DNA of 27,161 nt, taken from IMG/VR virus record IMGVR_UViG_3300017963_000223; one strand, written 5' to 3'. The notes below the pieces were generated by a model. It was given only the letters and a program-made list of their open reading frames with translations, was not told the origin of the DNA and ran no database searches. Shown here in pieces: positions 15,120-27,161 of this stretch. How positions within the stretch are numbered: position 1 is the stretch's first letter; the number at the start of each line of letters is the position of its first letter. Origin of the DNA: a virus (Duplodnaviria > Heunggongvirae > Uroviricota > Caudoviricetes). The position numbers and the translations under genes are program-made.

Positions 15120-15130
15120 ATGGATTTTCG

Positions 15131-15337: not shown

Positions 15338-15343
15338 ATCTAT

Positions 15344-15371
15344 TTGACTTTCGGGCGGGGTGTGGTATAGT
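15344..15371 (+). promoter_or_regulatory. Cassette promoter P1: TTGACT-N16-TATAGT, TGTG-extended -10
   Basis: ttgact-ttcgggcggggtgtgg-tatagt. Confidence 0.88.
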
Positions 15372-15410
15372 TGAGTGTTGGCGGAAACAAACCCACCGGA
15401 GGTAACGATT

Positions 15411-15683
15411 ATGACTTTTGAGCTAACTTTGAAGGGTTTTGACGGGTCTACCGATGCCACCGACCACTTGATAAAGTGGGTGAACGCGATTGATCGGCCC
15501 GCGCTAGAAAAATGGCTGCATGATACCGGATTGCAATCTGCCCTAGCTTGTGCCCCTAGCGAGTTGTCGCGACCGTTGACCCATGCTGACGGTGTTGACT
15601 TCACACTCGGAAAGACCGACCCAAAAGTGATCGACAACTGGAAAGACCAGTCTACAACCGGAGGTAACGATTATGTCGAATGA
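15411..15683 (+). CDS. Hypothetical protein, 90 aa (cassette 1 gene a)
   Basis: GGAGGT-AACGATT-ATG; start re-assigned from 15375. Confidence 0.75.
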   Translation: MTFELTLKGFDGSTDATDHLIKWVNAIDRPALEKWLHDTGLQSALACAPSELSRPLTHADGVDFTLGKTDPKVIDNWKDQSTTGGNDYVE

Positions 15684-15957
15684 GAAGATTGAGAAGGCTC
15701 TGCGCTTTTTCGGGATCAATGAGGCGCCGGAGGATTGTGACATCTGTGAGGACGGTAGCGTTTACCATGGGCTCACTCAGATACTCCCGGCCGGGTCAGT
15801 CGCGCCGCCGTGGTTCATCAACCACTACGTTTGCCCTACGTGCGGGGCCACTTGGGACGATGAGTGGGATTGTATGTGCGATGACGAATGCCCTGGTTGT
15901 GGCGCTGTTTGCAGTCCGGTTGACGGTGAGGCAATACCCCACCCCGATTTTCTCTGA
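15673..15957 (+). CDS. Cys-rich acidic zinc-binding protein, 94 aa (cassette 1 gene b)
   Basis: CDIC, CPTC, CMCDDECPGC; 19-bp translation-start region identical to gene a. Confidence 0.75.
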   Translation: MSNEKIEKALRFFGINEAPEDCDICEDGSVYHGLTQILPAGSVAPPWFINHYVCPTCGATWDDEWDCMCDDECPGCGAVCSPVDGEAIPHPDFL

Positions 15958-15965
15958 TTTTCTAT

Positions 15966-15993
15966 TTGACTTTCGGCTAGAGTGTGGTATGAT
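15966..15993 (+). promoter_or_regulatory. Cassette promoter P2: TTGACT-N16-TATGAT
   Basis: ttgact-ttcggctagagtgtgg-tatgat. Confidence 0.88.
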
Positions 15994-16006
15994 TGAATAG
16001 TCAAAC

Positions 16007-16077
16007 GACGGCTATCACTAGGCGGGATCGCGGGATAGCATAGCGGCCCCGATCGCTTCCGCCCAGTGATAGCCGTC
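16007..16077 (+). other. 71-nt 5'-UTR stem-loop with a 13-bp perfect basal stem
   Basis: GACGGCTATCACT (16007-16019) pairs with AGTGATAGCCGTC (16065-16077); further pairing inside. Confidence 0.85.
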
Positions 16078-16104
16078 ACAACACCACAACAAGGAGTTCC
16101 GATT

Positions 16105-16761
16105 ATGTCGAACGTATCAGCCAGTTACCTTTACTCCGGTATGTCTGATTTCTTCAGTGGCTACGGTTGTAACGACAACCAGTCACTCCTTTACGCTTTC
16201 TACGGCCCGCGCACGACTTTGCGGGATATAGTAGATCAACTGGTTAGTGAGACTTGGAGCGGTCCTGCCAGTGAGGACGTTCCGGAGGATCTTTCCAATG
16301 ATGAGGTTCGTGCGGCGATTCTCGATTGTCTGACTGAGCAGGGTCGTGCCGATTATGCCAGCGGCGCAATCTCTGAGTTTGCTGAGAAGTATGCGGCTGC
16401 GAACGATCTTGACGGTGAGGAGGAAGATGACGATTGTATGGATTCGCCCGTCGTTATCTTCCTGCTCGAATGGGAGGCCTGTGCCGATTGTGGCGCTTTC
16501 ACCGAGTTGAACGAGGATGAGGTCTGTGCCGAGTGTGCGGCCGGGGTTCCACCTGTGACGGTCACGAAGGAAGAGTTGGAAGCTAACGGTTATGTCGAGA
16601 TTGTCGAGCAGAACGATGACGGCAGTGTTGTCATTCTTAACGGCGACGGCGGTTGTGACCTGTTTCAGGTTCGTGACAGTTATGCGGGCTGGTGCCTGGA
16701 GTGTGAGTGCGGGCGGGTCCTGGAGTTTTGCCGGTCGCTGAGTCGTGGCGGAAATTTCTGA
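16105..16761 (+). CDS. Hypothetical acidic protein with Cys pairs, 218 aa (cassette 2)
   Basis: AAGGAG-TTCCGATT-ATG; EEEDDD tract; CADC, CAEC, CECG. Confidence 0.8.
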   Translation: MSNVSASYLYSGMSDFFSGYGCNDNQSLLYAFYGPRTTLRDIVDQLVSETWSGPASEDVPEDLSNDEVRAAILDCLTEQGRADYASGAISEFAEKYAAANDLDGEEEDDDCMDSPVVIFLLEWEACADCGAFTELNEDEVCAECAAGVPPVTVTKEELEANGYVEIVEQNDDGSVVILNGDGGCDLFQVRDSYAGWCLECECGRVLEFCRSLSRGGNF

Positions 16762-16768
16762 TTTCTAC

Positions 16769-16796
16769 TTGACTTTCGCGCAAGGTGTGGTATGCT
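16769..16796 (+). promoter_or_regulatory. Cassette promoter P3: TTGACT-N16-TATGCT, followed by hairpin GGCCGA-CGG-TCGGCC (16804-16818)
   Basis: ttgact-ttcgcgcaaggtgtgg-tatgct. Confidence 0.88.
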
Positions 16797-16849
16797 TGAG
16801 TGTGGCCGACGGTCGGCCGGAATCACCCACTACATGAGGAGTAACGATT

Positions 16850-17293
16850 ATGTCGGATTTGCGAGATGCGCTTAGGACACTGGCGGATAACGGATTGACG
16901 GAAGATTCGATAGTCGGGATTGTGCAGGAGGTTGTCGAGGGTGACGCCCTTGACGATAATGACGATCAAAAGTGGTGTGCGCTTGTTGCGGAAATGGGCG
17001 CTGACATGCTTGACGCCGACGAGTTCATCCATGACGATTGTGTGTTTGAGGTGGGCGGGTCCGAATATCTCGTTCTTACCGAGGATGAGAAAGAACAGCG
17101 CTGGGACGATTGTCTCGAAAGTTACCTTGATGACGGTTGTGTCGATGGTGCCGATTCTCCCTACTTCGACCGGGAGCGATGGAAGAAGGACGCGCGTATC
17201 GATGGTGCCGGTCACGCGCTTTCTTCCTACGACGGCAACGAGTACGAGTTCTCCGGGTTCGGAGAGTATTTCTACATCTACCGAATCAACTGA
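16850..17293 (+). CDS. Highly acidic protein, 147 aa, with ArdA-C-terminal-like YFDxExW motif (possible DNA mimic)
   Basis: GAGGAG-TAACGATT-ATG; 40/147 residues D/E by hand count; EYLVLTEDE...YFDRERWKKDARIDG...YDGNE...YIYR. Confidence 0.75.
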   Translation: MSDLRDALRTLADNGLTEDSIVGIVQEVVEGDALDDNDDQKWCALVAEMGADMLDADEFIHDDCVFEVGGSEYLVLTEDEKEQRWDDCLESYLDDGCVDGADSPYFDRERWKKDARIDGAGHALSSYDGNEYEFSGFGEYFYIYRIN

Positions 17294-17304
17294 TCGGAGG
17301 GGTC

Positions 17305-17460
17305 GTGGTAGAGCTAGCAGCACTGGTGATTGTATGGATTGTTCTGAATGTGTGCGAAAAACTGTATACGCCGGGAGAGCGGCTTGACCTGATTGTGTGG
17401 GCTGTAGCGGCTGTCCTGTTTATCGCACCTATCTGGATTGCCTTCAACTCAGGGGGATAG
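17305..17460 (+). CDS. Small two-TM membrane protein, 51 aa (this start not called in the ORF track)
   Basis: GGAGG 4 nt before GTG 17305; MVELAALVIVWIVLNV...LIVWAVAAVLFIAPIWIAF. Confidence 0.6.
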   Translation: MVELAALVIVWIVLNVCEKLYTPGERLDLIVWAVAAVLFIAPIWIAFNSGG

Positions 17461-17461
17461 C

Positions 17462-17995
17462 ATGTTTGACGATAGTAAGGTTTCGTTCGAGATTGAGGTT
17501 GAGGGGAGTGATGTCGAGGTTCGCGGTAATGCCATGTGTTCCGGTGATGCCGATGCTGACCGTGAGTATGAAGATGCCATCATTGCGCGTATCAACGATG
17601 GTGACGTTTGGGCATGGGCGCTGGTTCGCGTGGTCGCTCGTTACGATGGTATCGATGATGCCTATGGCGACGATTACCTCAGCGGTTGCAGTTATGCCGA
17701 TGAGGATGACTTCAAGGCTGACGGCTACTATGAGGATATGTGCGAAGTTGCCAAAAAAGAGCTTTATACCGTGTTGGAGCTTCGCGCTGATAAGTTGGGC
17801 CTTGACGAGTTGATCGATCCTTACGAGGGCGACCCTTGTAACGAGATTGCCGATCTTGCCACCGAGTTCAATTCTGACTTTTGCAAGGATGGTAGGGTCT
17901 ATGCCGAATATCACGATGATGGTTTTCACTTGCGGCTGACTGGTACGGTCGAGCGGGTTCTGACAGTTCTACGGGCGGCTCACGGTCGCGCTTAG
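17462..17995 (+). CDS. Hypothetical acidic phage protein, 177 aa (DYLSGCSY...YYEDM)
   Basis: AGGGGG RBS; start re-assigned to 17462. Confidence 0.75.
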   Translation: MFDDSKVSFEIEVEGSDVEVRGNAMCSGDADADREYEDAIIARINDGDVWAWALVRVVARYDGIDDAYGDDYLSGCSYADEDDFKADGYYEDMCEVAKKELYTVLELRADKLGLDELIDPYEGDPCNEIADLATEFNSDFCKDGRVYAEYHDDGFHLRLTGTVERVLTVLRAAHGRA

Positions 17996-18012
17996 AAAAT
18001 CCCGATTTCTAT

Positions 18013-18040
18013 TTGACTTTCCGCGCTTTTGTGGTATGCT
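18013..18040 (+). promoter_or_regulatory. Cassette promoter P4: TTGACT-N16-TATGCT, followed by CGGCCG-ACGGG-CGGCCG hairpin
   Basis: ttgact-ttccgcgcttttgtgg-tatgct. Confidence 0.88.
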
Positions 18041-18094
18041 TGTATTGTTCGGCCGACGGGCGGCCGGGAAACCCACCATAGGGAGATTGTAACG

Positions 18095-18580
18095 ATGGCA
18101 GCGATTTATCAAGCGGATGTCTGGTGTGACGATTGTGCGGATGTTATCAAGGATCGCCTCTGGGCGGAATCTGAGGATGGTCCGACCTTTTCCAATCGCG
18201 CTGAATGGGAAGAGTCTGTCGGTTACGACGATGAGCGTAACTATGACAGTGGTGAGTATCCGAAGGACTGTGACGATGATGAGGAATCTGACTGTCCTGA
18301 TCATTGTGCCGCTCATTCCGGTTGTCTCAATGCTGAGGTTCTTTCCGATGATAGCGTTGTTGGCTATTTCTTCGGTAATTCCTTGACTACCGACGGTGCG
18401 GATTATGTCAGGGATGCGGTTAGGGACGACGTGCGGGCGGGTGATACCGATTCTGTCGCCTGCACCCTTTGGATGCCCTATTACGATTGGATCGATTATG
18501 ACGGCATCGCCACCTGTTACGGTTGTGGCAAGCTTGCCTTTTGTGACGAAGACGGTTTCTGTAAGAAATGTGCCAAATAG
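18095..18580 (+). CDS. Acidic Cys-rich protein, 161 aa (cassette 4 gene a)
   Basis: AGGGAG RBS; CDDC, CPDHC, C-terminal CYGC...CKKC; start re-assigned from 18029. Confidence 0.78.
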   Translation: MAAIYQADVWCDDCADVIKDRLWAESEDGPTFSNRAEWEESVGYDDERNYDSGEYPKDCDDDEESDCPDHCAAHSGCLNAEVLSDDSVVGYFFGNSLTTDGADYVRDAVRDDVRAGDTDSVACTLWMPYYDWIDYDGIATCYGCGKLAFCDEDGFCKKCAK

Positions 18581-18589
18581 GGGGATGCT

Positions 18590-18937
18590 ATGGCGACCAT
18601 CAATTATGGCGAGTTGACCAGTTATGACGACTGCGTCAGGTGTTTGGGTGGTAGGGATTCGCTCCGGCTGCGCTACGCTGTGCGGCTTGTGCGGGATGGC
18701 GCGGACATAACGGTCGTGCATCATGCCACCCCGATTATCCGGTATCGGCCGGATGGAACGGTTGTGCTGGACTGTGCCGGTTATCGCAGTGCTACCACAA
18801 AGGCCAACCTGAACCGTTATACCGGCTTTCGGGTTTGGCAGAAAAAGGGGGTCTGGTATCTTTCTACCGGTCGGTGTGACCCTGTGGAATACTTCGATGG
18901 TATCGAATATGCCGGTCGCACGCCTTGTGCAGCCTAG
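18590..18937 (+). CDS. Hypothetical phage protein, 115 aa (HHATPII...GYRSATTKANLN)
   Basis: AGGGGG RBS; beta-rich pattern. Confidence 0.75.
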   Translation: MATINYGELTSYDDCVRCLGGRDSLRLRYAVRLVRDGADITVVHHATPIIRYRPDGTVVLDCAGYRSATTKANLNRYTGFRVWQKKGVWYLSTGRCDPVEYFDGIEYAGRTPCAA

Positions 18938-19018
18938 GCGCTTGCGGCCGGGCGCCGGGCGCTTGCGGCCGGGCGCCGGGCGCCGGGCGCTTGCGGCCGG
19001 GTGGCCGGGTGGCCGGGA
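18938..19018 (+). repeat. GC array 1 (GCGCTTGCGGCCGG x3 interspersed with CGCCGGG, then TGGCCGGG x2)
   Basis: Starts at the stop codon and runs into the upstream element of P5. Confidence 0.9.
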
Positions 19019-19038
19019 GAAAATTCCGAGAATTCTAT

Positions 19039-19066
19039 TTGACTTTCGCGTAAGGTGTGGTATGCT
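19039..19066 (+). promoter_or_regulatory. Cassette promoter P5: TTGACT-N16-TATGCT
   Basis: ttgact-ttcgcgtaaggtgtgg-tatgct; one mismatch versus P6 over about 60 bp. Confidence 0.9.
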
Positions 19067-19123
19067 TGTATTGTTCGGCCGACGGGCGGCCGGGAAACAC
19101 CACCACCGCAAAGGGTTCCGATT

Positions 19124-19603
19124 ATGACACAAGACCAAATTGATTCGATTCTGACGGACAAAGGGGTCGCGCTGGACGTGACGTTGGTTCGCGACGACTT
19201 TGACGGTCGCGAGGGTTCGACGACCTGGGCCGTTACAATCACCCGAAACGGCCAATCGTTCCAAACGGAATACACCCAAGGATGCTACCATCGGCACTAT
19301 CGGAGTGGGCGCCCGATCAATCTCCCCTTTGGAGGGGTGACGATTGCAACGGTTGAGAAGAACAAACGGACCCGGCCGAATAAGCCGATTCTGGCGGATG
19401 TGCTGCACGCGCTTGTGTCGGATGCGCAATGTGTAGCGTTTGGGCAGACCTTTGAGGATTTTGCCGGCGCTATGGGTTATGACACTGATTCCCGTGAAGC
19501 GGAACGTGTCTATAATGGCTGCCGGGATGAATACTTCGGGCTGGTCCGGCTGTTCGGGTCCGACGGCCTGGAAGAGTTGTGCGAGTTGTTCCAAGACTAT
19601 TGA
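19124..19603 (+). CDS. Hypothetical phage protein, 159 aa (P.LADVL..LVSDA...TFEDFA..MGYD.DS)
   Basis: AAGGG-TTCCGATT-ATG; start re-assigned from 19055. Confidence 0.8.
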   Translation: MTQDQIDSILTDKGVALDVTLVRDDFDGREGSTTWAVTITRNGQSFQTEYTQGCYHRHYRSGRPINLPFGGVTIATVEKNKRTRPNKPILADVLHALVSDAQCVAFGQTFEDFAGAMGYDTDSREAERVYNGCRDEYFGLVRLFGSDGLEELCELFQDY

Positions 19604-19623
19604 TTCCACCGGAGGTGACGGTT

Positions 19624-20103
19624 ATGTCGACGAAAGTGAACGGCGTGGTTCTATCGGATATAACGGCTCGGTATCTTGAAACGATACTGTGGGCTGAGAC
19701 GGTTCTGATGCCTGTGCCGGACGATGAGCTTGTTGACGGTCGTATGGATGTTGACAAAGATCATCCCTTGCACGGTATTGTCGAGGGTTTCCCTCTTGAC
19801 GAATACTTCGGTCTTGACGACTTTTCCGATGAGTCGCTTGAGAGGGCTGAGAGCGATTGTGCCGAGTTCTTCGATCGTATCGACGATGCCGATCTTCTCG
19901 AACGTGCCAATCGGTTCGCCGATGACGAACATATCGCTTATGACTTCTGGTTGACTCGTCAGGGTCATGGCGCTGGTTTCTGGGATGGCGATTACAAGGA
20001 CGATACCGACAATGTCGGCGACGCGCTTTCTGAGGTTGCTGCGGAGTTTGGCGAATGTTACGTTGTTGTCGGTGAGGGCGGTCAACTGCATATTGAGGGT
20101 TAG
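19624..20103 (+). CDS. Acidic phage protein with DFWLTRxGHGAGFWD motif, 159 aa
   Basis: GGAGGT-GACGGTT-ATG; start re-assigned from 19579. Confidence 0.8.
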   Translation: MSTKVNGVVLSDITARYLETILWAETVLMPVPDDELVDGRMDVDKDHPLHGIVEGFPLDEYFGLDDFSDESLERAESDCAEFFDRIDDADLLERANRFADDEHIAYDFWLTRQGHGAGFWDGDYKDDTDNVGDALSEVAAEFGECYVVVGEGGQLHIEG

Positions 20104-20151
20104 TCCGGTTGTGCGGGCGAACGGAAACAACGAGCAAAAGGAGGTGGGGTT

Positions 20152-20385
20152 ATGATGGTTGCAGCAGTCAAGCAGGTTGTGATGGTCAAGCGGGAATATC
20201 GGGATCGTTTGGATGATCCGCCCCGCACCGATAGTGTCGAGTTTGCCAGTCGGTTCGATGCTATCGATTATGCGACTCAGTTGTATCGGGCGGGTGTTGT
20301 CGAACGTGTTGAATGTATCGATCATACCGGTCGTCCGTTCTTTGCCGCTCGTCGCAATCAATTCGATTTTGCGCTTGCACGATGA
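20152..20385 (+). CDS. Hypothetical protein, 77 aa
   Basis: AAGGAGGT RBS. Confidence 0.72.
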   Translation: MMVAAVKQVVMVKREYRDRLDDPPRTDSVEFASRFDAIDYATQLYRAGVVERVECIDHTGRPFFAARRNQFDFALAR

Positions 20386-20417
20386 CGGCCGACGGGCGGC
20401 CGACGGGCGGCCGGGAG
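20386..20417 (+). repeat. GC array 2: CGGCCGACGGG x2 + CGGCCGGGAG
   Basis: Lies between the stop codon and the P6 upstream element. Confidence 0.9.
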
Positions 20418-20435
20418 AAAATCCCGATTTTCTAT

Positions 20436-20463
20436 TTGACTTTCGCGCAAGGTGTGGTATGCT
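20436..20463 (+). promoter_or_regulatory. Cassette promoter P6: TTGACT-N16-TATGCT
   Basis: ttgact-ttcgcgcaaggtgtgg-tatgct. Confidence 0.9.
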
Positions 20464-20551
20464 TGTATTGTTCGGCCGACGGGCGGCCGGGCGGAACGGT
20501 TGCCACCGGGCGGCCGACAATCCCAACCCCACCACCGAGGGAGTTCCGATT

Positions 20552-21358
20552 ATGAGCGAAATGCAGATGACGCTGGACGGGGCGCTTGTACCAACTGCGC
20601 CACATGTTGACGACATTGTCGTTTGTGTCGATGGTTCCGAGTGTCGGCATGGTGACGCGCTTTTCGATTGTGAGGGCGGCGCACATCGTACCGACGAGGA
20701 TAGGCACGACCGGGATGTACAGGTTGTGTCGGATTTTCTGGATGAGGTCGGAAAGTGGGCTGAGGACTATTGCACCGGCAATTCCGATTATCCCGATGCT
20801 TACAGTTGTCTCATCAATGAGGGTTGTCACGATTGGGACGATGATGTGCGTGAGTGGATTGAGAACGAATACGGCGACGAATGCGGTCACACCAACTTTG
20901 ACGACTATATCGAAGAAATCGTTGAGAAGGTCTGTGAGGAACTTGACGGTGAGTTCGATTGTGAGGCTGAATACAATTCCAACGAGTATGCCGCTTACTC
21001 CGGTTCTGGCTGTTGTTTGGGTTCGTTTGATATTGGCGAACATGAGGAACAGATCGAGATTAACGGTCACGACGTTCTTCGGGTTCTGCACGAACGTGGC
21101 GATCTTGACGATGTGTTGGATGATGTCAATTGTGACGTTTATATCAATCGCGACCGTCGGCGCGAGAAGAACGAAGAGACCGGATATTACGAGCCTGTCG
21201 GTCGTGAGACTTACATGCCTTATGAGCATAATCGCGAACATCCGGATCTTCTCATCTATGTCAACATTTCCGGTCAGTGGCAGTGGGTCGTTCCTGCCGA
21301 TCGCATGGAAGAGTTGGTCTGTGAGGCGCTGTTGGATTATCACGGTTATACCGAATAA
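20552..21358 (+). CDS. Extremely acidic protein, 268 aa (possible DNA mimic or anti-defence protein)
   Basis: GAGGGAG-TTCCGATT-ATG; hand count 72 D/E versus 17 K/R. Confidence 0.8.
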   Translation: MSEMQMTLDGALVPTAPHVDDIVVCVDGSECRHGDALFDCEGGAHRTDEDRHDRDVQVVSDFLDEVGKWAEDYCTGNSDYPDAYSCLINEGCHDWDDDVREWIENEYGDECGHTNFDDYIEEIVEKVCEELDGEFDCEAEYNSNEYAAYSGSGCCLGSFDIGEHEEQIEINGHDVLRVLHERGDLDDVLDDVNCDVYINRDRRREKNEETGYYEPVGRETYMPYEHNREHPDLLIYVNISGQWQWVVPADRMEELVCEALLDYHGYTE

Positions 21359-21376
21359 TACCTTGTGGTGGGGTAT

Positions 21377-21468: not shown

Positions 21469-21486
21469 AAAATCCGAGAATTCTAT

Positions 21487-21514
21487 TTGACTTCCGGGAA
21501 TGCGCGGATATACT
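21487..21514 (+). promoter_or_regulatory. Cassette promoter P7: TTGACT-N16-TATACT
   Basis: gagaaaatccgagaattctat-ttgact-tccgggaatgcgcgga-tatact-tgaatagtcggccgacgggcggccg. Confidence 0.9.
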
Positions 21515-21572
21515 TGAATAGTCGGCCGACGGGCGGCCGGGCGCAACACCCCACCACCACAAGGGTACAATC

Positions 21573-21890
21573 ATGGCGAAAATGACGATTGGTCCGAAAC
21601 ATCCGATCCGGGCGCTTGTGCAAGGTCTGCCGACCTATGCCGATTCTAAGGGTCGATTCGTTGAGTTGGTCTGTAAGGCCTTTGACGATTGTGACCTCGA
21701 TGTCGTTTGTTCCGATATGGACGGCGATGAGGGTCGCGTCAATTGGGCGATTCGTCCCAAAGATAACACTCGTGTCTGTTGTGACGAATGTGCGGCTCGC
21801 ATGGATGCTGCCAGTTATGACAACTGGATGGTTATTACGTGGTATCGGCTTTCTGCCCATACTATCGAATTTGTCGCTTATGTCAGCTAG
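21573..21890 (+). CDS. Hypothetical protein, 105 aa (CCDEC)
   Basis: AAGGG RBS after an A/C-rich leader. Confidence 0.75.
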   Translation: MAKMTIGPKHPIRALVQGLPTYADSKGRFVELVCKAFDDCDLDVVCSDMDGDEGRVNWAIRPKDNTRVCCDECAARMDAASYDNWMVITWYRLSAHTIEFVAYVS

Positions 21891-21906
21891 GCAAGGAGTA
21901 TCAACT

Positions 21907-22314
21907 ATGTCGAAAATTCAACTGAATCGGATTGTGAAGCCTGTGACGGTCGTGAGTAATGATGGCGCTCGTATCGAACAGCGCACTGAGTCCGTTGGTG
22001 TCAGTTTTGCCGGTCCTGACGGTCGTACCGTTTCGCTCGCCTTTGACGGTCGATGCGATTGTAAGGCTGATGCCCCTGGGATGATTCGTGAGACCTACGC
22101 GCCTTATGCCGATTGTGCCGTTATTGACGGCGAATACCGGCAAAGTGGACCTATGCCGGATATTCAGGTTATGCGCTTTCTGCGGGATGCGCTGATTGAC
22201 CTGGACCTGGGGGATTATGACCCTCGTAGGGTCTGTATCGTTTGTGGCGGTGAGTTCGAGCCTGCGAGTCCTGGGTGCTGTAACGTCTGTGCCGATTGTG
22301 AGGATAGCGACTGA
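21907..22314 (+). CDS. Hypothetical protein with C-terminal zinc finger (CIVC...CCNVC), 135 aa
   Basis: AAGGAG RBS; start re-assigned from 21589. Confidence 0.75.
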   Translation: MSKIQLNRIVKPVTVVSNDGARIEQRTESVGVSFAGPDGRTVSLAFDGRCDCKADAPGMIRETYAPYADCAVIDGEYRQSGPMPDIQVMRFLRDALIDLDLGDYDPRRVCIVCGGEFEPASPGCCNVCADCEDSD

Positions 22315-22317
22315 TTG

Positions 22318-22518
22318 CGGCCGGGCGGCCGGGCGGCCGGGCGGCCGGGCGGCCGGGCGGCCGGGCGGCCGGGCGGCCGGGCGGCCGGGCGGCCGGGCGG
22401 CCGGGCGGCCGGGAGCGGCCGGGAGCGGCCGGGAGCGGCCGGGAGCGGCCGACGGGCGGCCGACGGGCGGCCGGGAGCGGGCCCAGCAAGCCGGGAGCGG
22501 CCGACGGGCGGCCGGGAG
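22318..22518 (+). repeat. GC array 4: (CGGCCGGG)x11, (CGGCCGGGAG)x4, (CGGCCGACGGG)x2, then mixed words including a 20-mer; G-quadruplex-capable
   Basis: Parsed directly; the GGG-N5-GGG-N5-GGG-N5-GGG pattern recurs. Confidence 0.95.
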
Positions 22519-22536
22519 AAAATCCGAGAATTCTAT

Positions 22537-22564
22537 TTGACTTCCGGGAATGCGCGGGTATACT
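22537..22564 (+). promoter_or_regulatory. Cassette promoter P8: TTGACT-N16-TATACT
   Basis: ttgact-tccgggaatgcgcggg-tatact; 61 bp identical to P12. Confidence 0.9.
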
Positions 22565-22620
22565 TGAATAGTCGGCCGACGGGCGGCCGAAACACCACAT
22601 CACATAGGGGGGTTCCGATT

Positions 22621-23061
22621 ATGACGACCATGCCGACTTATTCCGATGTGACGCTTGACGCGATGACTGCCGATTGTAACGAATGGGAGAATGCTGTCGT
22701 TCGTGCGGCCTTTACCACTCGTGGCGTTCGTGACGGCGGTAAGCTTCGTGCCAATAAACCGTTTCGCACGGTTCACAACAAGTGGGAGGGTTGTGCCAAT
22801 TACGTGTGGCGTATGCTTTGTTTCGATCTTGTCGGATCGGGGAAGCATGCCTGTATGCCGGTCTGTGCCGACTTTGACCTTCACGACGCCGTTAGGGAAG
22901 ATGCGGGTTATGCCGATATTACCGATCGTCACGACCGGTATCAGGTTGTGCGGGATTTGACGGCTGACATGGATGCCCTGGTCAAGCGGGTCGAATCGGC
23001 TTTGCCGATCACAGAGCAGAAAGGGATTCTGCGGTGGGGACGGGCTTTGGGGATGGTGTGA
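22621..23061 (+). CDS. Hypothetical protein, 146 aa (cassette 8 gene a)
   Basis: AGGGGG-TTCCGATT-ATG; start re-assigned from 22315. Confidence 0.78.
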   Translation: MTTMPTYSDVTLDAMTADCNEWENAVVRAAFTTRGVRDGGKLRANKPFRTVHNKWEGCANYVWRMLCFDLVGSGKHACMPVCADFDLHDAVREDAGYADITDRHDRYQVVRDLTADMDALVKRVESALPITEQKGILRWGRALGMV

Positions 23062-23075
23062 GTTGTGACGATTGT

Positions 23076-23099
23076 GCGGGCGGCCGGGCGGTCGCCCGC
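23076..23099 (+). other. GC-rich 10-bp hairpin between two genes, built from the array word
   Basis: GCGGGCGGCC-GGGC-GGTCGCCCGC (one G.U), preceded by CGATTGT. Confidence 0.75.
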
Positions 23100-23119
23100 T
23101 ATAACCGGGAGAATCCGCA

Positions 23120-23347
23120 ATGAAGATGCGACCCGACGATTACGAACGACTGACAGAATCGATACAGTCGTTACTGAAGCGACAACCGGAAGTATCGGTA
23201 GAAACCTACCTTGGGCAGGGTATGACGGCTGAGCGGTTTAGGTGGGATGCGCTACATGCTTCCGGATTTGACACTCGTGCGCTTTATGACTATCTTGACG
23301 ATGATCACATCGATACCGCGCTTCGCCGGATAACCGGTACAAACTGA
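23120..23347 (+). CDS. Hypothetical phage protein, 75 aa (RFRWD...LYDYLDDDHIDTALR)
   Basis: GGGAGA RBS; the pattern resembles a widespread small phage family (from recall). Confidence 0.78.
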   Translation: MKMRPDDYERLTESIQSLLKRQPEVSVETYLGQGMTAERFRWDALHASGFDTRALYDYLDDDHIDTALRRITGTN

Positions 23348-23408
23348 CCGGGCGGCCGGGAGCGGGCGGCCGGGAGCGGGCGGCCGGGAGCGGGCGGCCG
23401 GGCGGGAG
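23348..23408 (+). repeat. GC array 5: (CGGCCGGGAGCGGG)x3 plus flanking words
   Basis: Between the stop codon and the P9 upstream element. Confidence 0.9.
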
Positions 23409-23426
23409 AAAATCCGAGAATTCTAT

Positions 23427-23454
23427 TTGACAATCGCGATAGGCGCGGTATAGT
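23427..23454 (+). promoter_or_regulatory. Cassette promoter P9: TTGACA-N16-TATAGT
   Basis: ttgaca-atcgcgataggcgcgg-tatagt. Confidence 0.9.
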
Positions 23455-23514
23455 TGAATAGTCGGCCGACGGGCGGCCGGAAAACACCCCACCACCGATT
23501 ATGAGGATTTTACC

Positions 23515-24078
23515 ATGAGTAGCGAACGTAGCAAAGGTGTCGTGCTTGTCGGTCGTAAGGGCGATGAGTATTATTTCGTTGATTCCGTCTTTCGGCATGA
23601 TGACCGTCTTGCGGGTTGTACCGGAACGGTCGTCTGTCCGGTGTCGACCGAATATGCCGATCATCTACTTTCTGCCGATCAAGTGGAAGATCGGTGGTTT
23701 GACTCTTGGCGCGAATATGCCTTTCGGTGTATTGAGTCCGATTGTAGGAATTGTCGGAATGGCGTCGATGAGGAGGGTTGTGAGGATTGTGGCTATCAGT
23801 CGCTTCGTGAGTTTGGCGCCGAGATTGCCAACGGTGACGGTATTGACGCCATGATCGATCGCACCGATCAAGAGTATGTTGACGCCTTGAACGAACATGC
23901 TGATCTTGACGATGAGGCCAAGTATGCCGATTGTATCGGCTGTGGCAGAATCTTCGGTCGTCTGGGTCTTGACGATTTTGACGAAGTGTACAATCGCAAG
24001 GCGCTTGTCGCTATTCTCGCTTATGAGGATGGCGCAACTGATTACGATTATACCCGTCGTGTGGTCTATGGCGATTAG
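23515..24078 (+). CDS. Acidic Cys-rich protein, 187 aa (CRNC...CEDC, CIGCGRIF)
   Basis: GAGG RBS; overlapped by a 5-codon upstream ORF (23501-23518). Confidence 0.8.
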   Translation: MSSERSKGVVLVGRKGDEYYFVDSVFRHDDRLAGCTGTVVCPVSTEYADHLLSADQVEDRWFDSWREYAFRCIESDCRNCRNGVDEEGCEDCGYQSLREFGAEIANGDGIDAMIDRTDQEYVDALNEHADLDDEAKYADCIGCGRIFGRLGLDDFDEVYNRKALVAILAYEDGATDYDYTRRVVYGD

Positions 24079-24086
24079 TCCGATTG

Positions 24087-24151
24087 CGCGGGCGGCCGGG
24101 CGAGTGGAGCGGGAGCGGGAGCGGGAGCGGGAGCGGGCGGCCGGGCGGGAG
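24087..24151 (+). repeat. GC array 6: includes (CGGGAG)x4
   Basis: Begins after TAGTCCGATTG; ends at the P10 upstream element. Confidence 0.9.
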
Positions 24152-24169
24152 AAAATCCGAGAATTCTAT

Positions 24170-24198
24170 TTGACAATCGCGATAGGCGCGGCTATACT
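24170..24198 (+). promoter_or_regulatory. Cassette promoter P10: TTGACA-N17-TATACT
   Basis: ttgaca-atcgcgataggcgcggc-tatact (P9 spacer plus one C). Confidence 0.9.
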
Positions 24199-24249
24199 TG
24201 AATAGTCGGCCGACGGGCGGCCGGGCGCAACACCACAAGGAGTCCGATT

Positions 24250-25536
24250 ATGACGATTGCAACAGATGACACGGTCGTGACACTGGCAACGGTCAGTGTG
24301 TTTGAGCGGGGTTTGTCGGCTTTGCGGGTCAAGGTGGCAAAGCTGAATAAGCGGGCGGCGCGCTATGGGATGGTGCCGCTGGAATTGAGGATTCTGTCGG
24401 CCGAACCGACCACACGGGATTTGCGGGTTGGCGGGGAAGTGCGGGAAGTGCCGGATGTGCTGACCACAGTCGAGATTGCGGGTTGTGAGCCCTGTATCAA
24501 TGGTTACAGAATTATCGCCAAGGTCGAATTTAACGATCTTGTCGGTAATGTCGTTCGTGTCGCTCCTGGCAATGATGACGATGGTAGCTTTGAGCAGTAT
24601 CGCACCATTGGTCCGGTCTGTGAGCATTGCAACAGTCGTCGGCGTCGTAACGATGTTTACGTCCTTGCGGGTCCTGACGGTTCTCGCAAAATTGTCGGTC
24701 GCAACTGTCTTGCCGATTATGTCAGGGATGGCGATGCTGCGGCGCTTGCGGCCTGGGCCGAATTTGCCGATCAGTTGCGTGATGCGACCTGTGACGGTGA
24801 TCCGGAAGATGACGATTGGCGGGAGTATACCGGTGATCGCGGTAATCCGAATATGCACCTCGGAGCGTATTTGCGGGTTGTGGCGCTTGTGAAGCGTAGG
24901 TTCGGTTGGATGGGTCGCACGGCCGCTAGGGATTCGTTCGATGGTATCGCTACTGCCGATGATGCCGCTCGTTTCATCTATGGGCGTGGTAGGGCGCATG
25001 ACGCTTGGGTGAGTAAGAACGAATTGTATATCTGTGAGGATGATGGCGATTATGCCGATCGTGCCATCGCATGGGCGGCCGGGTTGGATTCTGCCGGCAA
25101 GTCCGAATATATCGATGTGATCAGCAAAATCGCTCGTGCCGGATATGTCGATATGCGGAAGCTTGACGGCTATGCGGCTTCGATCCTTATTGCCTATGAT
25201 AAGGCCTGTGAGCGTGAGATCGAACGTAAGGAACGTGAGGCTGGCGCCAAGAATAAGGTCTGGTACGGTGAGGAGAAAAAGAGGGAACGTAGCGTCCGTG
25301 TCAAATGTGTCGGTCTTAACAGTTTTGAGGGTCAGTACGGTGTCACCACATTGGTGAGATTTGAGCATTATCCGAATGACACGGATGTGGCCGTTCTTGT
25401 CTGGTTTGCCAGTGGTGACAAGTATAACGATTGGGACCTTGAAGAGGAATATGTCGTTGACTTCACTTGTAAGGGTCACGACGATCACGACAAATATGGC
25501 AAACAGACCAAGATCAACCGGGTGAAGCAAGTGTAA
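24250..25536 (+). CDS. Hypothetical phage protein, 428 aa: CEHC...VGRNC zinc module and probable C-terminal OB-fold
   Basis: AAGGAG-TCCGATT-ATG; C-terminal FEGQYGVTTLVRF...VWFASG...KGHDDHDKYGKQTKINRVK. Confidence 0.8.
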   Translation: MTIATDDTVVTLATVSVFERGLSALRVKVAKLNKRAARYGMVPLELRILSAEPTTRDLRVGGEVREVPDVLTTVEIAGCEPCINGYRIIAKVEFNDLVGNVVRVAPGNDDDGSFEQYRTIGPVCEHCNSRRRRNDVYVLAGPDGSRKIVGRNCLADYVRDGDAAALAAWAEFADQLRDATCDGDPEDDDWREYTGDRGNPNMHLGAYLRVVALVKRRFGWMGRTAARDSFDGIATADDAARFIYGRGRAHDAWVSKNELYICEDDGDYADRAIAWAAGLDSAGKSEYIDVISKIARAGYVDMRKLDGYAASILIAYDKACEREIERKEREAGAKNKVWYGEEKKRERSVRVKCVGLNSFEGQYGVTTLVRFEHYPNDTDVAVLVWFASGDKYNDWDLEEEYVVDFTCKGHDDHDKYGKQTKINRVKQV

Positions 25537-25544
25537 CGATTGTG

Positions 25545-25706
25545 CGGGCGGCCGGGCGGGTGGAGCGGCCGACGGGCGGCCGGGCGGGTCCAGGTGGCGG
25601 CCGGGCGGGTCCAGGTGGCGGCCGGGCGGGTCCAGGTGGCCGGGCGGCCGGGCGGGCGGCCGGGCGGGCGGCCGGGCGGGTGGAGCGGCCGACGGGCGGC
25701 CGGGAG
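25545..25706 (+). repeat. GC array 7: includes (CGGCCGGGCGGGTCCAGGTGG)x3, flanked by CGGGTGGAG-CGGCCGACGGG-CGGCCGGG blocks
   Basis: Begins after TAACGATTGTG; ends at the P11 upstream element. Confidence 0.92.
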
Positions 25707-25724
25707 AAAATCCGAGAATTCTAT

Positions 25725-25752
25725 TTGACTTCCGGGAATGCGCGGGTATACT
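25725..25752 (+). promoter_or_regulatory. Cassette promoter P11: TTGACT-N16-TATACT (no 5' hairpin)
   Basis: ttgact-tccgggaatgcgcggg-tatact-tgaattgt. Confidence 0.9.
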
Positions 25753-25789
25753 TGAATTGTAAGGGGAAAACACCACAAGGGGAAACGCC

Positions 25790-25933
25790 ATGCCGGGACG
25801 AATAAACAAACGCCACGCCATAACGCATTGCCGGGAGCTATTCCGCATCGGCGGCTTGCGTCTGATTGTAGCGGTTATGCTGGCCAAGCCGGGTACTCCG
25901 TTCCTAACGATTTTCACGACTGTATGCAGATGA
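25790..25933 (+). CDS. Small basic/hydrophobic protein, 47 aa (MPGRINKRHAI...; not in the ORF track)
   Basis: First ATG after P11, with AAGGGG RBS and CACCAC leader. Confidence 0.55.
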   Translation: MPGRINKRHAITHCRELFRIGGLRLIVAVMLAKPGTPFLTIFTTVCR

Positions 25934-25944
25934 GGGGTTGTGCC

Positions 25945-26178
25945 ATGTGTGATGATTATGTCGATGATTCACCTCTTGACTTTTGTCCGGCCTGTGGCTA
26001 TGATCACGATTGTCCGGTCTGTACCGGTGAGTTCGATTCTCACAAAGAACTCGATCGTGCCGAAGATGACCTTCTTGCCGATTTGATCGAGTGTCCGGTC
26101 TGTGGCTATGATGCCGACTGTGCCGATTGTATCGGTGAGGCCGATCCTATCGATCTTGTCGACTTGCTTGACGGGTAG
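25945..26178 (+). CDS. Acidic protein, 77 aa, with duplicated CPxCGYDxDCxxCxGE zinc motif
   Basis: GAGGGG RBS; 9 Cys, 24 D/E, 2 K/R; start re-assigned from 25828. Confidence 0.75.
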   Translation: MCDDYVDDSPLDFCPACGYDHDCPVCTGEFDSHKELDRAEDDLLADLIECPVCGYDADCADCIGEADPIDLVDLLDG

Positions 26179-26303
26179 CCGGGAGCGGCCGGGAGCGGGC
26201 CCAGCAAGCCGGGAGCGGCCGGGAGCGGCCGACGGGCGGCCGGGCGGCCGGGCGGGTGGAGCGGGCCCAGCAAGCCGGGAGCGGCCGACGGGCGGCCGGG
26301 GAG
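26179..26303 (+). repeat. GC array 8: mixed words including two 20-mers CGGGCCCAGCAAGCCGGGAG
   Basis: From the stop codon to the P12 upstream element. Confidence 0.92.
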
Positions 26304-26321
26304 AAAATCCGAGAATTCTAT

Positions 26322-26349
26322 TTGACTTCCGGGAATGCGCGGGTATACT
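26322..26349 (+). promoter_or_regulatory. Cassette promoter P12: TTGACT-N16-TATACT (5' hairpin truncated)
   Basis: ttgact-tccgggaatgcgcggg-tatact-tgaatagtcggc. Confidence 0.9.
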
Positions 26350-26389
26350 TGAATAGTCGGCAACACTCACCACCACAAGGGGACCGATT

Positions 26390-26521
26390 ATGTGGATTAC
26401 GCGAATTCTGAGAGCTTTGCGGAACGTGACGGATGCAACGGTCAGTGAGGATGTCCGGATGAAACGGTTGATCCGGAAAAGCATGCAACGACGGTCGTAT
26501 CGACCGTGCGGATCGTATTGA
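26390..26521 (+). CDS. Small Arg-rich protein, 43 aa (MWITRILRALRN...; not in the ORF track)
   Basis: AAGGGG-ACCGATT-ATG, the shared cassette start context. Confidence 0.65.
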   Translation: MWITRILRALRNVTDATVSEDVRMKRLIRKSMQRRSYRPCGSY

Positions 26522-26576
26522 CCAGAGGGCGGCCGGTCGGACGACCGGGACAACCATCACAACCAGGAGAATCAAC

Positions 26577-26750
26577 ATGACCACGATGATCGACACAAGC
26601 GGCAATGAGCATGAAATCGCCAGACCCGACAACGTCCAAACATTCCGATCGATCGGATGGACCGTCAAAGGCGCCACAGACCTGCGAGACCAGACAACCC
26701 GCAAAATCCCTGTGACCGAGCACGACTGGGATTATCTGTTCCGTGAGTAG
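26577..26750 (+). CDS. Small protein, 57 aa (MTTMIDTSGNEHEIARPD...; not in the ORF track)
   Basis: CAGGAG RBS after an A/C-rich leader; open to TAG 26748-26750. Confidence 0.65.
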   Translation: MTTMIDTSGNEHEIARPDNVQTFRSIGWTVKGATDLRDQTTRKIPVTEHDWDYLFRE

Positions 26751-26832
26751 AATCGAACCAACCTGCGCAATCCCGTCAGGGGAGCCGAGGTTCGGCTTGT
26801 GCCGATCACCCCGACAATTCCGATTGTGCCGA

Positions 26833-26860
26833 AAAGGGCCCCTGTAGGGGTCCTTTCTTA
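26833..26860 (+). terminator. Intrinsic terminator-like hairpin
   Basis: AAAGGGCCCC-TGTA-GGGGTCCTTT followed by CTTA; A-run on the 5' side suggests it may be bidirectional. Confidence 0.7.
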
Positions 26861-26906
26861 TGCGCCGATGGCGCCGAAAATGCCGATTAGGCTGCGCCGT
26901 AAAATG

Positions 26907-27161
26907 CCGGGCGGGTGGAGCGGGCCCAGCAAGCCGGGAGCGGCCGGGCGGGTGGAGCGGGCCCAGCAAGCCGGGAGCGGCCGACGGGCGGCCGGGCCCA
27001 GCAAGCCGGGAGCGGCCGACGGGCGGGCCCAGCAAGCCGGGAGCGGCCGACGGGCGGGCGGGCGGCCGGGAGCGGGCCCAGCAAGCCGGGAGCGGCCGAC
27101 GGGCGGCCGGGAGCGGGCCCAGCAAGCCGGGAGCGGCCGACGGGCGGCCGGGCGGGTGGAG
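26907..27161 (+). repeat. GC array 9 (at least 255 bp, truncated by the window end) with six CCCAGCAAG-containing words
   Basis: Words CGGGTGGAG, CGGGCCCAGCAAGCCGGGAG, CGGCCGACGGG, CGGCCGGG(AG) in varying order. Confidence 0.93.

Follow-up and report, generated by a model that had tools for sequence, protein, structure and literature searches.

The closest described counterparts of the locus analysed here, which lies in a 27,161-nt stretch of DNA (the window, meaning the whole stretch), are the promoter-early stem-loops (PeSLs) known in the T4-type phages RB49/phi1, T4/PST and KVP40/nt-1, for which terminator activity and mini-circles have been demonstrated experimentally (Arbiol et al. 2010, PMC2839356; Comeau et al. 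2014, PMC4122927). PeSLs and the elements of our phage are built alike: both are ~100-bp repeated composite motifs in which an AT-rich region is combined with a sigma-70-like early promoter, a GC stem-loop, a Shine-Dalgarno (SD) site and a start codon, and one PeSL subclass carries its stem-loop downstream of the -10 element, as is the case here. Both are concentrated in a plastic region before ORFans, in both, where two motifs flank a gene in one genome, an indel leaves a close relative with a single chimeric motif, and homologous recombination between motifs has been proposed for both. In contrast to PeSLs, however, our phage belongs to a clade unrelated to T4-type phages, and its modules are longer, much less variable (exact stretches of up to 76 nt; ~98% identity in relative L010) and all co-oriented in one contiguous row, with explicit homogenisation within the genome. 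Most promoters here are also preceded by GC-rich hypervariable arrays of 30–750 bp, a component that PeSLs are not known to have.

Two further systems invite comparison. The host-takeover module of Bacillus phage SPO1, which Stewart et al. are said to have described in 1998, reportedly consists of 24 genes in 12 operons near the genome end; these operons have strong early sigma-A promoters and strong ribosome sites. It resembles our locus in packing about two dozen small early genes, mostly of unknown function, compactly into ~12 short operons that each carry a strong host-type promoter and ribosome-binding site of their own, but the SPO1 promoters do not sit within near-identical modules of >100 nt with hairpins and arrays, and we know of no recombination-driven cassette turnover at promoters in SPO1. 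Integrons depend on the tyrosine recombinase IntI, on attI and attC sites and on a single shared promoter. They share with our locus the rows of small, co-oriented, exchangeable accessory cassettes, and excision as circles has been proposed in both; here, however, each cassette has its own promoter, the window ORFs scanned include no integrase, and crossovers fall at varying points of the repeat, indicating homologous exchange as opposed to a site-specific one. The term 'integron-like', used in the initial annotation, is therefore a loose analogy, there being no integrase, attC site or common promoter.

Layout of the cassette row

The window contains 12 sigma-70-type promoter modules (P1–P12), all on the + strand and spanning 15339–26349. 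The regular expression TCTAyTTGACw-N14-19-yAkrnT gives exactly 12 matches (at 15339, 15961, 16764, 18008, 19034, 20431, 21482, 22532, 23422, 24165, 25720 and 26317) and none on the - strand, with 597–1555 bp between neighbouring modules, so that the initial count of 12 co-oriented modules ~0.6–1.6 kb apart stands. A consensus scan returned 34 promoter-like sites in the window vs 7.8 ± 3.0 in shuffles, the 12 being among the top scores. The modules, their cargo ORFs (g01–g22) and the closing elements are:

15307..15410, +, module P1: (GGAACATTC)x3.4 upstream repeat, TTGACT-16-TATAGT with TG, leader, SD, CGATT-ATG
15411..15957, +, cargo of P1: g01 (15411-15683, 90 aa), g02 (15673-15957, 94 aa, 9 Cys)
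15958..16104, +, module P2: promoter and distinct long 5' leader hairpin (~16007-16079)
16105..16761, +, cargo of P2: g03 (218 aa, pI 4.1, 12 Cys)
16762..16849, +, module P3: extended -10 promoter, variant hairpin GGCCGACGGTCGGCC
16850..17995, +, cargo of P3: g04 (147 aa), g05 (51 aa, hydrophobic), g06 (177 aa)
17996..18094, +, module P4: promoter, TGTATTGT, 17-mer hairpin, leader
18095..18937, +, cargo of P4: g07 (161 aa), g08 (115 aa)
18938..19123, +, module P5: GC array (18937-19017), promoter, hairpin, leader
19124..20385, +, cargo of P5: g09 (phrog_4273), g10 (phrog_1915), g11
20386..20551, +, module P6: two overlapping 17-mers upstream, promoter, 17-mer hairpin, long leader
20552..21358, +, cargo of P6: g12 (268 aa, pI 4.1, 13 Cys)
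21359..21572, +, module P7: terminator-like 14-bp stem (21378-21408), array, full promoter module, hairpin
21573..22314, +, cargo of P7: g13 (105 aa), g14 (135 aa)
22315..22620, +, module P8: 202-bp array (22317-22518), full promoter module, hairpin
22621..23347, +, cargo of P8: g15 (146 aa), g16 (75 aa), with a 10-bp-stem hairpin after the CGATTGTG boundary motif in the gap between them
23348..23514, +, module P9: 14-mer array, full promoter module, hairpin
23515..24078, +, cargo of P9: g17 (187 aa)
24079..24249, +, module P10: (GGAGCG)n array, promoter, hairpin
24250..25536, +, cargo of P10: g18 (428 aa, phrog_2319), which is conserved as the clade's anchor gene
25537..25789, +, module P11: array (161 bp), promoter, downstream hairpin absent
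25790..26178, +, cargo of P11: g19 (47 aa, basic), g20 (77 aa, four CxxC pairs)
26179..26389, +, module P12: 124-bp array, promoter, truncated hairpin
26390..26750, +, cargo of P12: g21 (43 aa), g22 (57 aa)
26833..26862, +, intrinsic-terminator-like hairpin with T-run at the end of the cassette row (z -2.5; conserved in L002)
26900..27161, +, terminal GC-rich array of 31-41-nt units, inside which the window ends

The modules had been called near-identical, which holds for P4–P12, where three subfamilies (P4–6, P7/8/11/12 and P9/10) share exact stretches of 39–76 nt, but not for the looser P1–P3, where such stretches are just 10–17 nt. The P11 promoter is identical to those of P8 and P12, and the spacer sequence of P10 is the same as in P9. 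A 17-mer, CGGCCGACGGGCGGCCG, has 21 exact copies (0.05 expected), all on the + strand and past 18050, and flanks the P6, P7 and P8 promoter cores on either side, as originally noted; exact copies of a 21-mer, GAGAAAATCCGAGAATTCTAT, are found in P7–P12 only. The complete module, from array through CGATT-ATG, had been presented as the general formula and is found in P7–P10 only: the 17-mer is missing downstream of the promoter in P1, P2, P11 and P12, and P1–P4 are without an array. CGATT-ATG starts 9 of the first genes of cassettes; in P9 the usual ATG starts a 5-codon mini-ORF overlapping the g17 start. The P2 leader hairpin (-50.4 kcal/mol, z -6.05) had no match in Rfam. P12 is the final module; in L002, g22 is followed by an intrinsic terminator, a 456-bp array with no promoter after it, and a non-coding region.

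Behind the 12 modules lie 22 ORFs of 43–428 aa with SD sites, 1–3 per cassette. No paralogy was detectable among them, in keeping with their earlier description as unrelated small genes, although g18, being 428 aa long, does not fit the label 'small'. The proteins are mostly very acidic (pI about 4.1 in most) and Cys-rich (4–13 Cys). Pfam searches of the cargo ORFs matched no family, g01 and g02 had no match in either Pfam or PHROG, and no functional annotation was obtained for any cargo protein from Pfam, PHROG and others. Homologues of g03 are present in L008, L009 and L012, and those of g12 in L007 and L008.

Cassette turnover and promoter homogenisation among relatives

Among close relatives, the P9 cassette (g17) is absent from L002–L006, five metagenomic contigs from five samples with 96% identical g18, in which a single module separates g16 from g18. 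In the alignment of this junction (A1), the P9 upstream flank with a P9-type -10 runs into the P10 leader, which places the crossover in the -10-to-hairpin stretch (L002); run X5 has low depth across the P9 cassette. In L009 the P4 cassette (g07–g08) is absent and a single module lies between g06 and g09. Here (A2) the P4 upstream flank continues as the P5 spacer and leader, the crossover falling within TTCTATTTGACTTTC, in the -35 region. The same cassette is nearly absent from run X2, where depth is 1.1–1.8 over 18248–19059 vs 15–23 on the flanks, while run X1 has full depth there; the X2 evidence is depth of cargo sequence, and the long X2 contigs, among those listed, have zero or almost zero differences from the window. 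These two cassette indels, A1 and A2, are resolved to the nucleotide. At each of the two readable junctions the module is chimeric, and the crossover falls at a different point in each, as expected of homologous exchange and not of a site-specific enzyme; both crossovers sit in the promoter/hairpin part, outside the arrays.

More distant relatives, at 55–67%, keep the layout with different sequences and a shuffled cassette order (L007, L008, L010, L012 and L013): g15 precedes g13 in L008, L010 and L012, and g12, g06 and g03 are permuted. Relatives thus differ by whole cassettes, with breakpoints inside the shared module and altered order, and the initial suggestion that cargo is gained, lost and swapped by recombination between modules is well supported by the P9 and P4 indels, their chimeric junctions and the shuffling. 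The g18 promoter shows identity of 0.75–1.00 to paralogous promoters of its own genome vs 0.35–0.76 to the orthologous promoter elsewhere, the five L010 modules are ~98% identical among themselves, and P8 and P11 share one spacer in the window and another common spacer in L002. These comparisons show that the promoters are homogenised within each genome, a pattern of concerted evolution whose extent, across six lineages, implies frequent exchange between modules.

GC-rich arrays and hairpins

GC-rich tandem arrays lie upstream of P5–P12, with one more at the window end. Promoter-coupled arrays occur in at least six lineages with lineage-specific words: in L007 they reach 750 bp and precede 8/8 lineage-specific promoters, in L010 they precede 4/5, and they are upstream of promoters in L008, L012 and L013 as well. 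All are GC-rich with a G excess on the sense strand. The P8 array, 202 bp in the window, has only ~55 bp in L002, and array length before P11 is 189 nt in the window, 118 in L002 and 89 in L004. On sequence grounds the arrays are hypervariable minisatellites that most likely arose when slippage amplified the module's GC hairpin or terminator portion.

Could the arrays instead be functional, as multi-hairpin terminators or insulators, as recombination stimulators (G-quadruplex/R-loop prone, switch-region-like or Chi-like), or as binding arrays through which a phage protein shuts the early promoters off? Their position directly upstream of promoters in so many lineages and the strand bias of G4 motifs in the window (12 on +, 0 on -, vs 4.2 and 0.3 in block shuffles) are in favour, as is the terminator action reported for the GC stem-loops of PeSLs (PMC2839356). 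We nevertheless consider such roles unlikely. P1–P4 apparently work without any array, length varies between near-identical strains in a way resembling neutral slippage, G4 motifs were absent when searched for in L009, L010 and L013, the terminal array has no promoter following it, and the readable crossovers lie in promoter and hairpin instead. The arrays are not followed by a U-tract, as canonical terminators would be, and folding of hairpins and arrays is no better than in composition-matched shuffles (z -0.2 to -1.0). As for the GC hairpin predicted in the module leaders, L007 has (GGGCAAC)n in its place and in L008 the stem begins ~19 nt past the -10, and therefore a strictly 5'-terminal protective role is not universal.

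Proposed cassette exchange by homologous recombination

We propose that the early-gene region of this uncultured tailed phage is probably built as 12 PeSL-type cassettes shuffled by homologous recombination. Each cassette would run from an A/T-rich upstream element through a near-consensus host sigma-70 promoter and a conserved initial transcribed sequence to, usually, a 6–7-bp GC hairpin close to the message's 5' end, an A/C-rich leader, an SD site and 1–3 ORFan genes. General homologous recombination and gene conversion between the 40–76-nt identical stretches that modules share, driven by recombinases of phage or host with no integrase involved, would delete, insert, reorder and convert cassettes, and each incoming gene would get ready-made expression signals. 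This putative mechanism matches the PeSL model set out in PMC2839356 and PMC4122927; the initial annotation was right about the likeness to PeSLs but treated as a mere analogue what is, in mechanism, the one already published for them.

The repeats might instead belong to an ordinary multi-promoter early region (as in SPO1, T5 or T4) and serve strong early transcription alone, with the indels incidental and the modules not specially suited to shuffling; what mainly separates this view from our proposal is whether shuffling is what the arrangement is 'for'. Large lytic phages commonly have clustered early promoters of near-consensus, host type, and just two cassette indels could be read to the nucleotide. 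This view is nonetheless quite improbable, because both indels and the X2 depth gap match cassette boundaries exactly, because the junctions of both indels are chimeric modules, because homogenisation within genomes in six lineages needs frequent module exchange, and because cargo order is permuted in relatives while the module architecture is retained.

It is very improbable that an integron-like site- or structure-specific recombinase, encoded elsewhere, acts on the 17-mer hairpins or on CGATTRTG words. The 17-mer does flank several promoter cores, and since the stop codons of g15, g17 and g18 are succeeded by CGATTGTG or CGATTGCG and CGATT-ATG stands at starts, an 8-nt direct repeat encloses some of the cargos. 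However, the crossover points differ between L009 and L002, and CGATTGTG within genes invariably reads as the codons GAT-TGT (Asp-Cys), in proteins with many of both residues, so that coding accounts for much of its excess. The window ORFs scanned (29 for integrase families, part of the left half included) gave no hit to an integrase or resolvase family, consistent with the earlier statement that no integrase is present.

Least probable of all is that the gains and losses are artefacts of short-read assemblers collapsing repeated modules: most clade contigs span 1–6 kb and stop within modules or arrays, each module interrupts the Logan contigs and the window itself ends within an array, but five assemblies, from five samples and at least two pipelines, agree exactly on the g17-less junction, which has a promoter spacer unlike both P9 and P10, and so cannot be a collapsed window-type genome, the L009 junction has substitutions of its own, and the unique P4 cargo is missing by depth in X2, independently of assembly paths.

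By analogy with the described systems, the predicted promoters may fire early with host RNA polymerase, the 5' hairpin may stabilise the message or attenuate read-through, and the acidic, Cys-rich cargo may act on host proteins or defences, as the initial annotation supposed. The distinctive feature of this locus is the hypervariable GC-rich tandem array immediately upstream of most promoters. Phage evolution by module shuffling, known from T4-type phages, would here be seen in an unrelated phage clade.

Promoter modules of the cassette row

In two papers on T4-type phages (PMC2839356, PMC4122927), promoter-early stem-loops (PeSLs) are repeated units in which an AT-rich region is combined with a sigma-70-like early promoter, a GC stem-loop and a Shine-Dalgarno/start site; they cluster before ORFans in hyperplastic regions, and genes are lost or inserted when the PeSLs on either side of them recombine, which can also yield mini-circles. 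Judged from its sequence, the row of cassettes (each a promoter module, P1-P12, plus the cargo ORFs behind it, g01-g22) matches this description. Its main elements and some neighbouring ones are the following.

8613-10025, - strand: 470-aa ORF, matching only the unknown-function PHROGs phrog_6077 and phrog_8203
15119-15091: predicted leftward promoter
15307-15337: (GGAACATTC)x3.4 repeat upstream of P1
15339-26349, + strand: exactly twelve matches to TCTAyTTGACw-N-yAkrnT, spaced 597-1555 bp apart
15994-16108: P2 leader, with a long near-perfect hairpin where other modules carry the 17-mer hairpin
23501-23518: 5-codon mini-ORF (ATG AGG ATT TTA CCA TGA) begun by the usual module ATG of P9
24250-25536: g18, 428-aa anchor gene, cargo of P10

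All twelve sites carry the core TTGACw-16/17-TAtrnT with GAGAAAATCC-GAGAATTCTAT or variants upstream, joined by a TG extended -10 in P1-P6, and these predicted sites supply the repeated sigma-70-like early promoter and AT-rich upstream region of a PeSL. They rank among the best scorers of a neutral consensus scan, which scored 34 sigma-70-like sites across 14500-27161 where shuffles give 7.8 +/- 3.0. The 17-mer CGGCCGACGGGCGGCCG has 21 exact copies where 0.05 are expected, only on the + strand and only beyond 18050, and with the twelve promoter matches this confirms the twelve-module row reported in the initial annotation. The 17-mer lies downstream of the promoter in P4-P10 (P3 has a 2-mismatch variant) and also upstream of P6, P7, P8, P11 and P12, and a 21-mer upstream element occurs in exact copies in P7-P12. 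By the length of exact shared stretches the modules form the subfamilies P4/P5/P6 (39-43 nt), P7/P8/P11/P12 (44-76 nt) and P9/P10 (64 nt), while P1-P3 have merely 10-17 nt in common with any other module. Twelve is the full count, since the close relative L002, a contig that extends past the window end, shows no further module beyond g22: an intrinsic terminator and a 456-bp array come first, then a non-coding stretch of about 470 bp, and the genes after it are unrelated and lack the module.

The GC stem-loop attached to the promoter is represented by a 6-7-bp stem, CGGCCG/CGGCCG, predicted in the leaders of P3-P10, and other stems occupy the hairpin position in three more distant contigs (L008, L010, L012). 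It is not universal, being missing in P1, P11, P12 and contig L007. No U-tract follows the hairpins or the arrays, their RNA folding did not differ significantly from shuffles, an Rfam scan of 14800-27161 at E<=0.1 gave no match, and neither did a search for RNA runs containing an 8.3-kb stretch or g18 alone. In E. coli, 5'-terminal stem-loops stabilise mRNA, and we infer that the role of the 5' hairpins is mRNA stabilisation or attenuation. The P2 leader hairpin stands out by its predicted stability (-50.4 kcal/mol, z -6.05, 0/200 shuffles as stable) and has no Rfam match. The repeat upstream of P1 has a counterpart in L008, where similar GAACATT(C/G)-GAATTC words precede promoters (upstream of 7030, 7975, 9818 and 11629), and these words may be a conserved upstream element or a regulator site.

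To the left of the row, GC skew and ORF orientation place a divergence point near 15100-15340. Products of the left 15 kb include nucleotide and sugar enzymes of phage type, namely a DNA methylase, a deoxyribosyltransferase-like protein, dCMP deaminase, MazG, an M28 peptidase, UDP-glucose dehydrogenase and a phosphoesterase. Megablast of both window halves against deposited phages gave no match and there are no T4 core genes among the window genes, so that by both measures the phage falls outside the T4 superfamily.

Gain and loss of whole cassettes

Metagenomes contain 138 homologues of g18 at E<=1e-10, and five contigs from five samples (L002-L006) carry a g18 that is 96% identical to that of the window. 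All five are collinear with it over g13-g16 and g18-g22, and all five lack g17. Both the segment 22492-23509 and that from 24088 onward align to one L002 module, and in the junction alignment (A1) this single module follows P9 in its upstream flank and its type of -10 (TATAGT) and then continues as P10, with that module's leader and the start of g18; its spacer is unlike both window copies. For depth, Logan contigs of four public runs were mapped onto the stretch; in one of these, X5, a ~95% relative, depth is 0.5 across g17. The stop of the P9 mini-ORF overlaps the g17 start and its AGGA is the ribosome site of g17, and the arrangement looks like a scar left when the module was joined, at its start codon, to a foreign gene.

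A second cassette, P4/g07-g08, is absent from L009, a ~90-95% relative spanning g03-g14. Between g06 and g09 it has a single module (A2) in which the P4 upstream flank is joined to the P5 spacer and leader, and the crossover therefore lies inside TTCTATTTGACTTTC. The single chimeric motif that marks PeSL indels is thus found at both the P9/g17 (A1) and the P4/g07-g08 (A2) junction. Run X2, whose listed long contigs show no or almost no differences from the window, has a depth of 1.1-1.8 over 18248-19059 compared with 15-23 on either side, and in X1 the same region is covered at about 17-18. X2 retains the P4 promoter to 18059 and picks up again at 19069, and therefore its junction, placed by depth and not read directly, should fall in the 43 nt common to P4 and P5, which makes it a different event from the L009 crossover. 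Joints that pair two arrays, or a gene end with an array, as in X5 contigs (e.g. 21426 to 25635, 23352 to 25664), were left out of the evidence because both sides are repeats.

Cassette content thus varies among relatives, with breakpoints in the modules, rather than being invariant. Collapse of the repeated modules during assembly is an unlikely source of the junctions: an identical one is present in five assemblies, the junction modules bear substitutions of their own, and the X2 signal is the depth of unique cargo sequence. No integrase families were found among the ORFs scanned, and the variable crossover points argue for exchange by general homologous recombination, against a site-specific enzyme. 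The row has been likened to an integron, and this does not hold, as each cassette has its own promoter, crossovers vary and the scanned ORFs include no integrase; integrons have IntI, attI/attC sites and a common Pc promoter, whereas att sites and a shared promoter are lacking here.

More distant relatives, recognised by g18, likewise have rows of co-oriented promoters before small genes, with module sequences that differ and cargo genes in a permuted order.

Relatives of the cassette row (contig; g18 identity; module and cargo order)
Window; reference; cargo order g03, g04, g06, g07, g12, g13, g14, g15, g18
L007 (96.8-kb contig); 55%; one promoter in eight copies, each followed by a (GGGCAAC)n leader; cargo order g04, g12, g07, g13, g14, g18
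L008; 59%; promoter then CCCCCC-loop-GGGGGG hairpin; cargo order g12, g06, g03, g15, g13, g14, g18
L010/L011; 66%; in L010 five modules about 98% identical, with a CGGCCG-GGGGA-CGGCCG hairpin; cargo order in L010 g15, g14, g13, g18
L012; 58%; promoter then CCCCCC-loop-GGGGGG hairpin
L013; 67%; promoter row

The promoter preceding g18 has an identity of 0.75-1.00 to promoters of its own genome compared with 0.35-0.76 to the orthologous promoter elsewhere. P8 and P11 co-vary, with one common spacer in the window and another common spacer in L002, and L009 has a P4-type spacer upstream of g12. The promoters, as their sequences indicate, are undergoing concerted evolution via exchange between modules. 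An exact module 26-mer had no match in viral_contigs, and a 23-mer matched a single contig of metagenome_contigs, L009; with g18, viral_contigs gave only L001, a 29% relative that lacks the cassette architecture.

The excised circle expected of PeSLs has a candidate in L010, a 6038-bp contig of five cassettes with near-identical modules, whose ends (1-178 and 5861-6038) overlap by 178 nt at 99.4%. The closing junction is independently present in contig L011 (124-2607) of a different sample, where it reads g18, an 89-aa gene, a module and a g15-like gene. The self-overlap may reflect a circle of 5.86 kb, tandem duplication of the cassette block or an assembly loop, and look-ups of two L011 proteins brought no added context.

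GC-rich arrays at the promoters

Tandem Repeats Finder detected GC-rich arrays upstream of P5-P12 and at the window end. They are 32-262+ bp long, 83-95% GC and G-rich on the sense strand, with words around GCGGCCG and periods of 6, 8, 10, 11, 14, 21 and 31-41 nt. Their lengths vary between near-identical strains: at P8 the window has 222 nt between stop codon and promoter where L002 has 64 nt; the corresponding gaps at P11 are 189 nt in the window, 118 nt in L002 and 89 nt in L004, and those at P12 are 144 and 281 nt in near-identical strains. Arrays directly upstream of promoters are also found in L007, where they reach 750 bp and precede 8/8 lineage-specific promoters, and in L010, L008, L012 and L013, with words specific to each lineage. 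On this sequence comparison, arrays and promoters are coupled throughout the clade, but the array sequence is not shared. Modules exist without arrays (P1-P4), and the terminal array exists without a promoter. In the PeSL papers (PMC2839356, PMC4122927) arrays coupled to promoters have no precedent, and a literature search on intergenic tandem repeats at phage early promoters found nothing among the papers covered.

The arrays are best read as GC hairpin words that have undergone fast slippage or unequal exchange at each cassette's 3' edge, and both readable crossovers fall outside them. They could possibly insulate, stabilise 3' ends or stimulate recombination. Since at least six lineages retain arrays, each lineage with words of its own, it is conceivable, if rather unlikely, that they are functional and not slippage debris, insulating cassettes and/or provoking the breaks or R-loops that drive exchange; cassette circles or amplifications, hinted at by the self-overlapping 5.86-kb five-cassette L010, could then exist. 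If true, functional arrays would be a phage counterpart of switch-region-type, transcription-coupled recombination. The G-quadruplex fails as a general explanation: its motifs are about 3-fold enriched in the window (12 against 4.2 in shuffles) and absent in L009, L010 and L013.

The non-coding DNA of about 470 bp beyond the row and terminal array of L002 (L002:5170-5650) contains an inverted pair of GAGGGAGCGGAA (5224 +, 5509 -). A link between the arrays and this word was rejected, as it is missing from the window and present in L002 just as the inverted pair beyond the row.

Cargo genes and relation to known systems

Behind the modules 22 ORFs were called, every one with a Shine-Dalgarno site, and in nine first genes the start reads CGATT-ATG. 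The encoded proteins are mostly Cys-rich and strongly acidic (pI about 4.1, Asp+Glu 17-31%), and no paralogy was found among the ORFs. None of the 19 cargo ORFs scanned contains a Pfam family above threshold; g09, g10 and g18 alone match PHROGs, all families of unknown function; PDB sequence searches with these three gave no match, and the Atlas returned only viral hypothetical clusters for the cargo searched. As with PeSLs, the modules lie in a plastic region, directly upstream of ORFans, and gene content differs among relatives. The core of the proposal in the initial annotation, integrase-free turnover of genes at the modules, is thus borne out, but the host-takeover and anti-defence functions that it gave the cargo find no support in functional annotation.

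The anchor gene g18 is a member of a large family confined to phages (phrog_2319; Atlas clusters 81-97% viral). In its Atlas model the C-terminal ~90 residues have a weak OB-fold/RecG-wedge likeness (TM by hit 0.33-0.56 over about 81 aa). Two homologues, P0006 and P0024, are filed at NCBI under Planctomycetota MAGs, which may point to the phylum of the host or be due to mis-binning of phage contigs.

Within the row (15300-27161) the + strand has 27 copies of the word CGATTRTG (e.g. 23069, 24081, 25537, 26821). Nine copies are at first-gene starts and four lie directly behind the stops of g15, g17 and g18 or close to the final terminator, where they read CGATTGTG or CGATTGCG, then CGGGCGGCCGGGCG; intragenic copies always form the codon pair GAT-TGT or GAT-TAT (Asp-Cys, Asp-Tyr). 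On the + strand CGATTGT has 21 copies in the right 12 kb and one in the left 15 kb. Cargo genes have up to 0.5 G at codon position 1, and since their use of T-ending codons (T3 0.3-0.47) is far above that of left-half genes (1-15000, about 0.1-0.25), the early cassettes have a codon style of their own, set apart from the left half.

In layout the closest match to the row is the host-takeover module of SPO1, where about 24 early genes are split among about 12 operons, each led by a promoter. The likeness to PeSLs is one of mechanism; the present phage is not T4-like, which makes its modules an analogue and not a homologous family member. Overall, the row combines PeSL-type shuffling with minisatellite arrays coupled to its promoters, in an uncultured phage clade that is not of the T4 type. 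The general shuffling principle is already published, and the promoter-coupled arrays are a testable addition to it; they also account for the poor metagenomic assembly of such regions. PeSL-style modular shuffling is not peculiar to T4-like phages: it operates in an unrelated, uncultured phage clade from sediment and seawater metagenomes, with junctions located at nucleotide level in environmental populations, and early-gene cassettes are gained and lost whole between otherwise identical strains. Because whole cassettes come and go in this way, the row is a natural inventory of early genes that turn over fast and are candidates for a host-takeover or anti-defence role.
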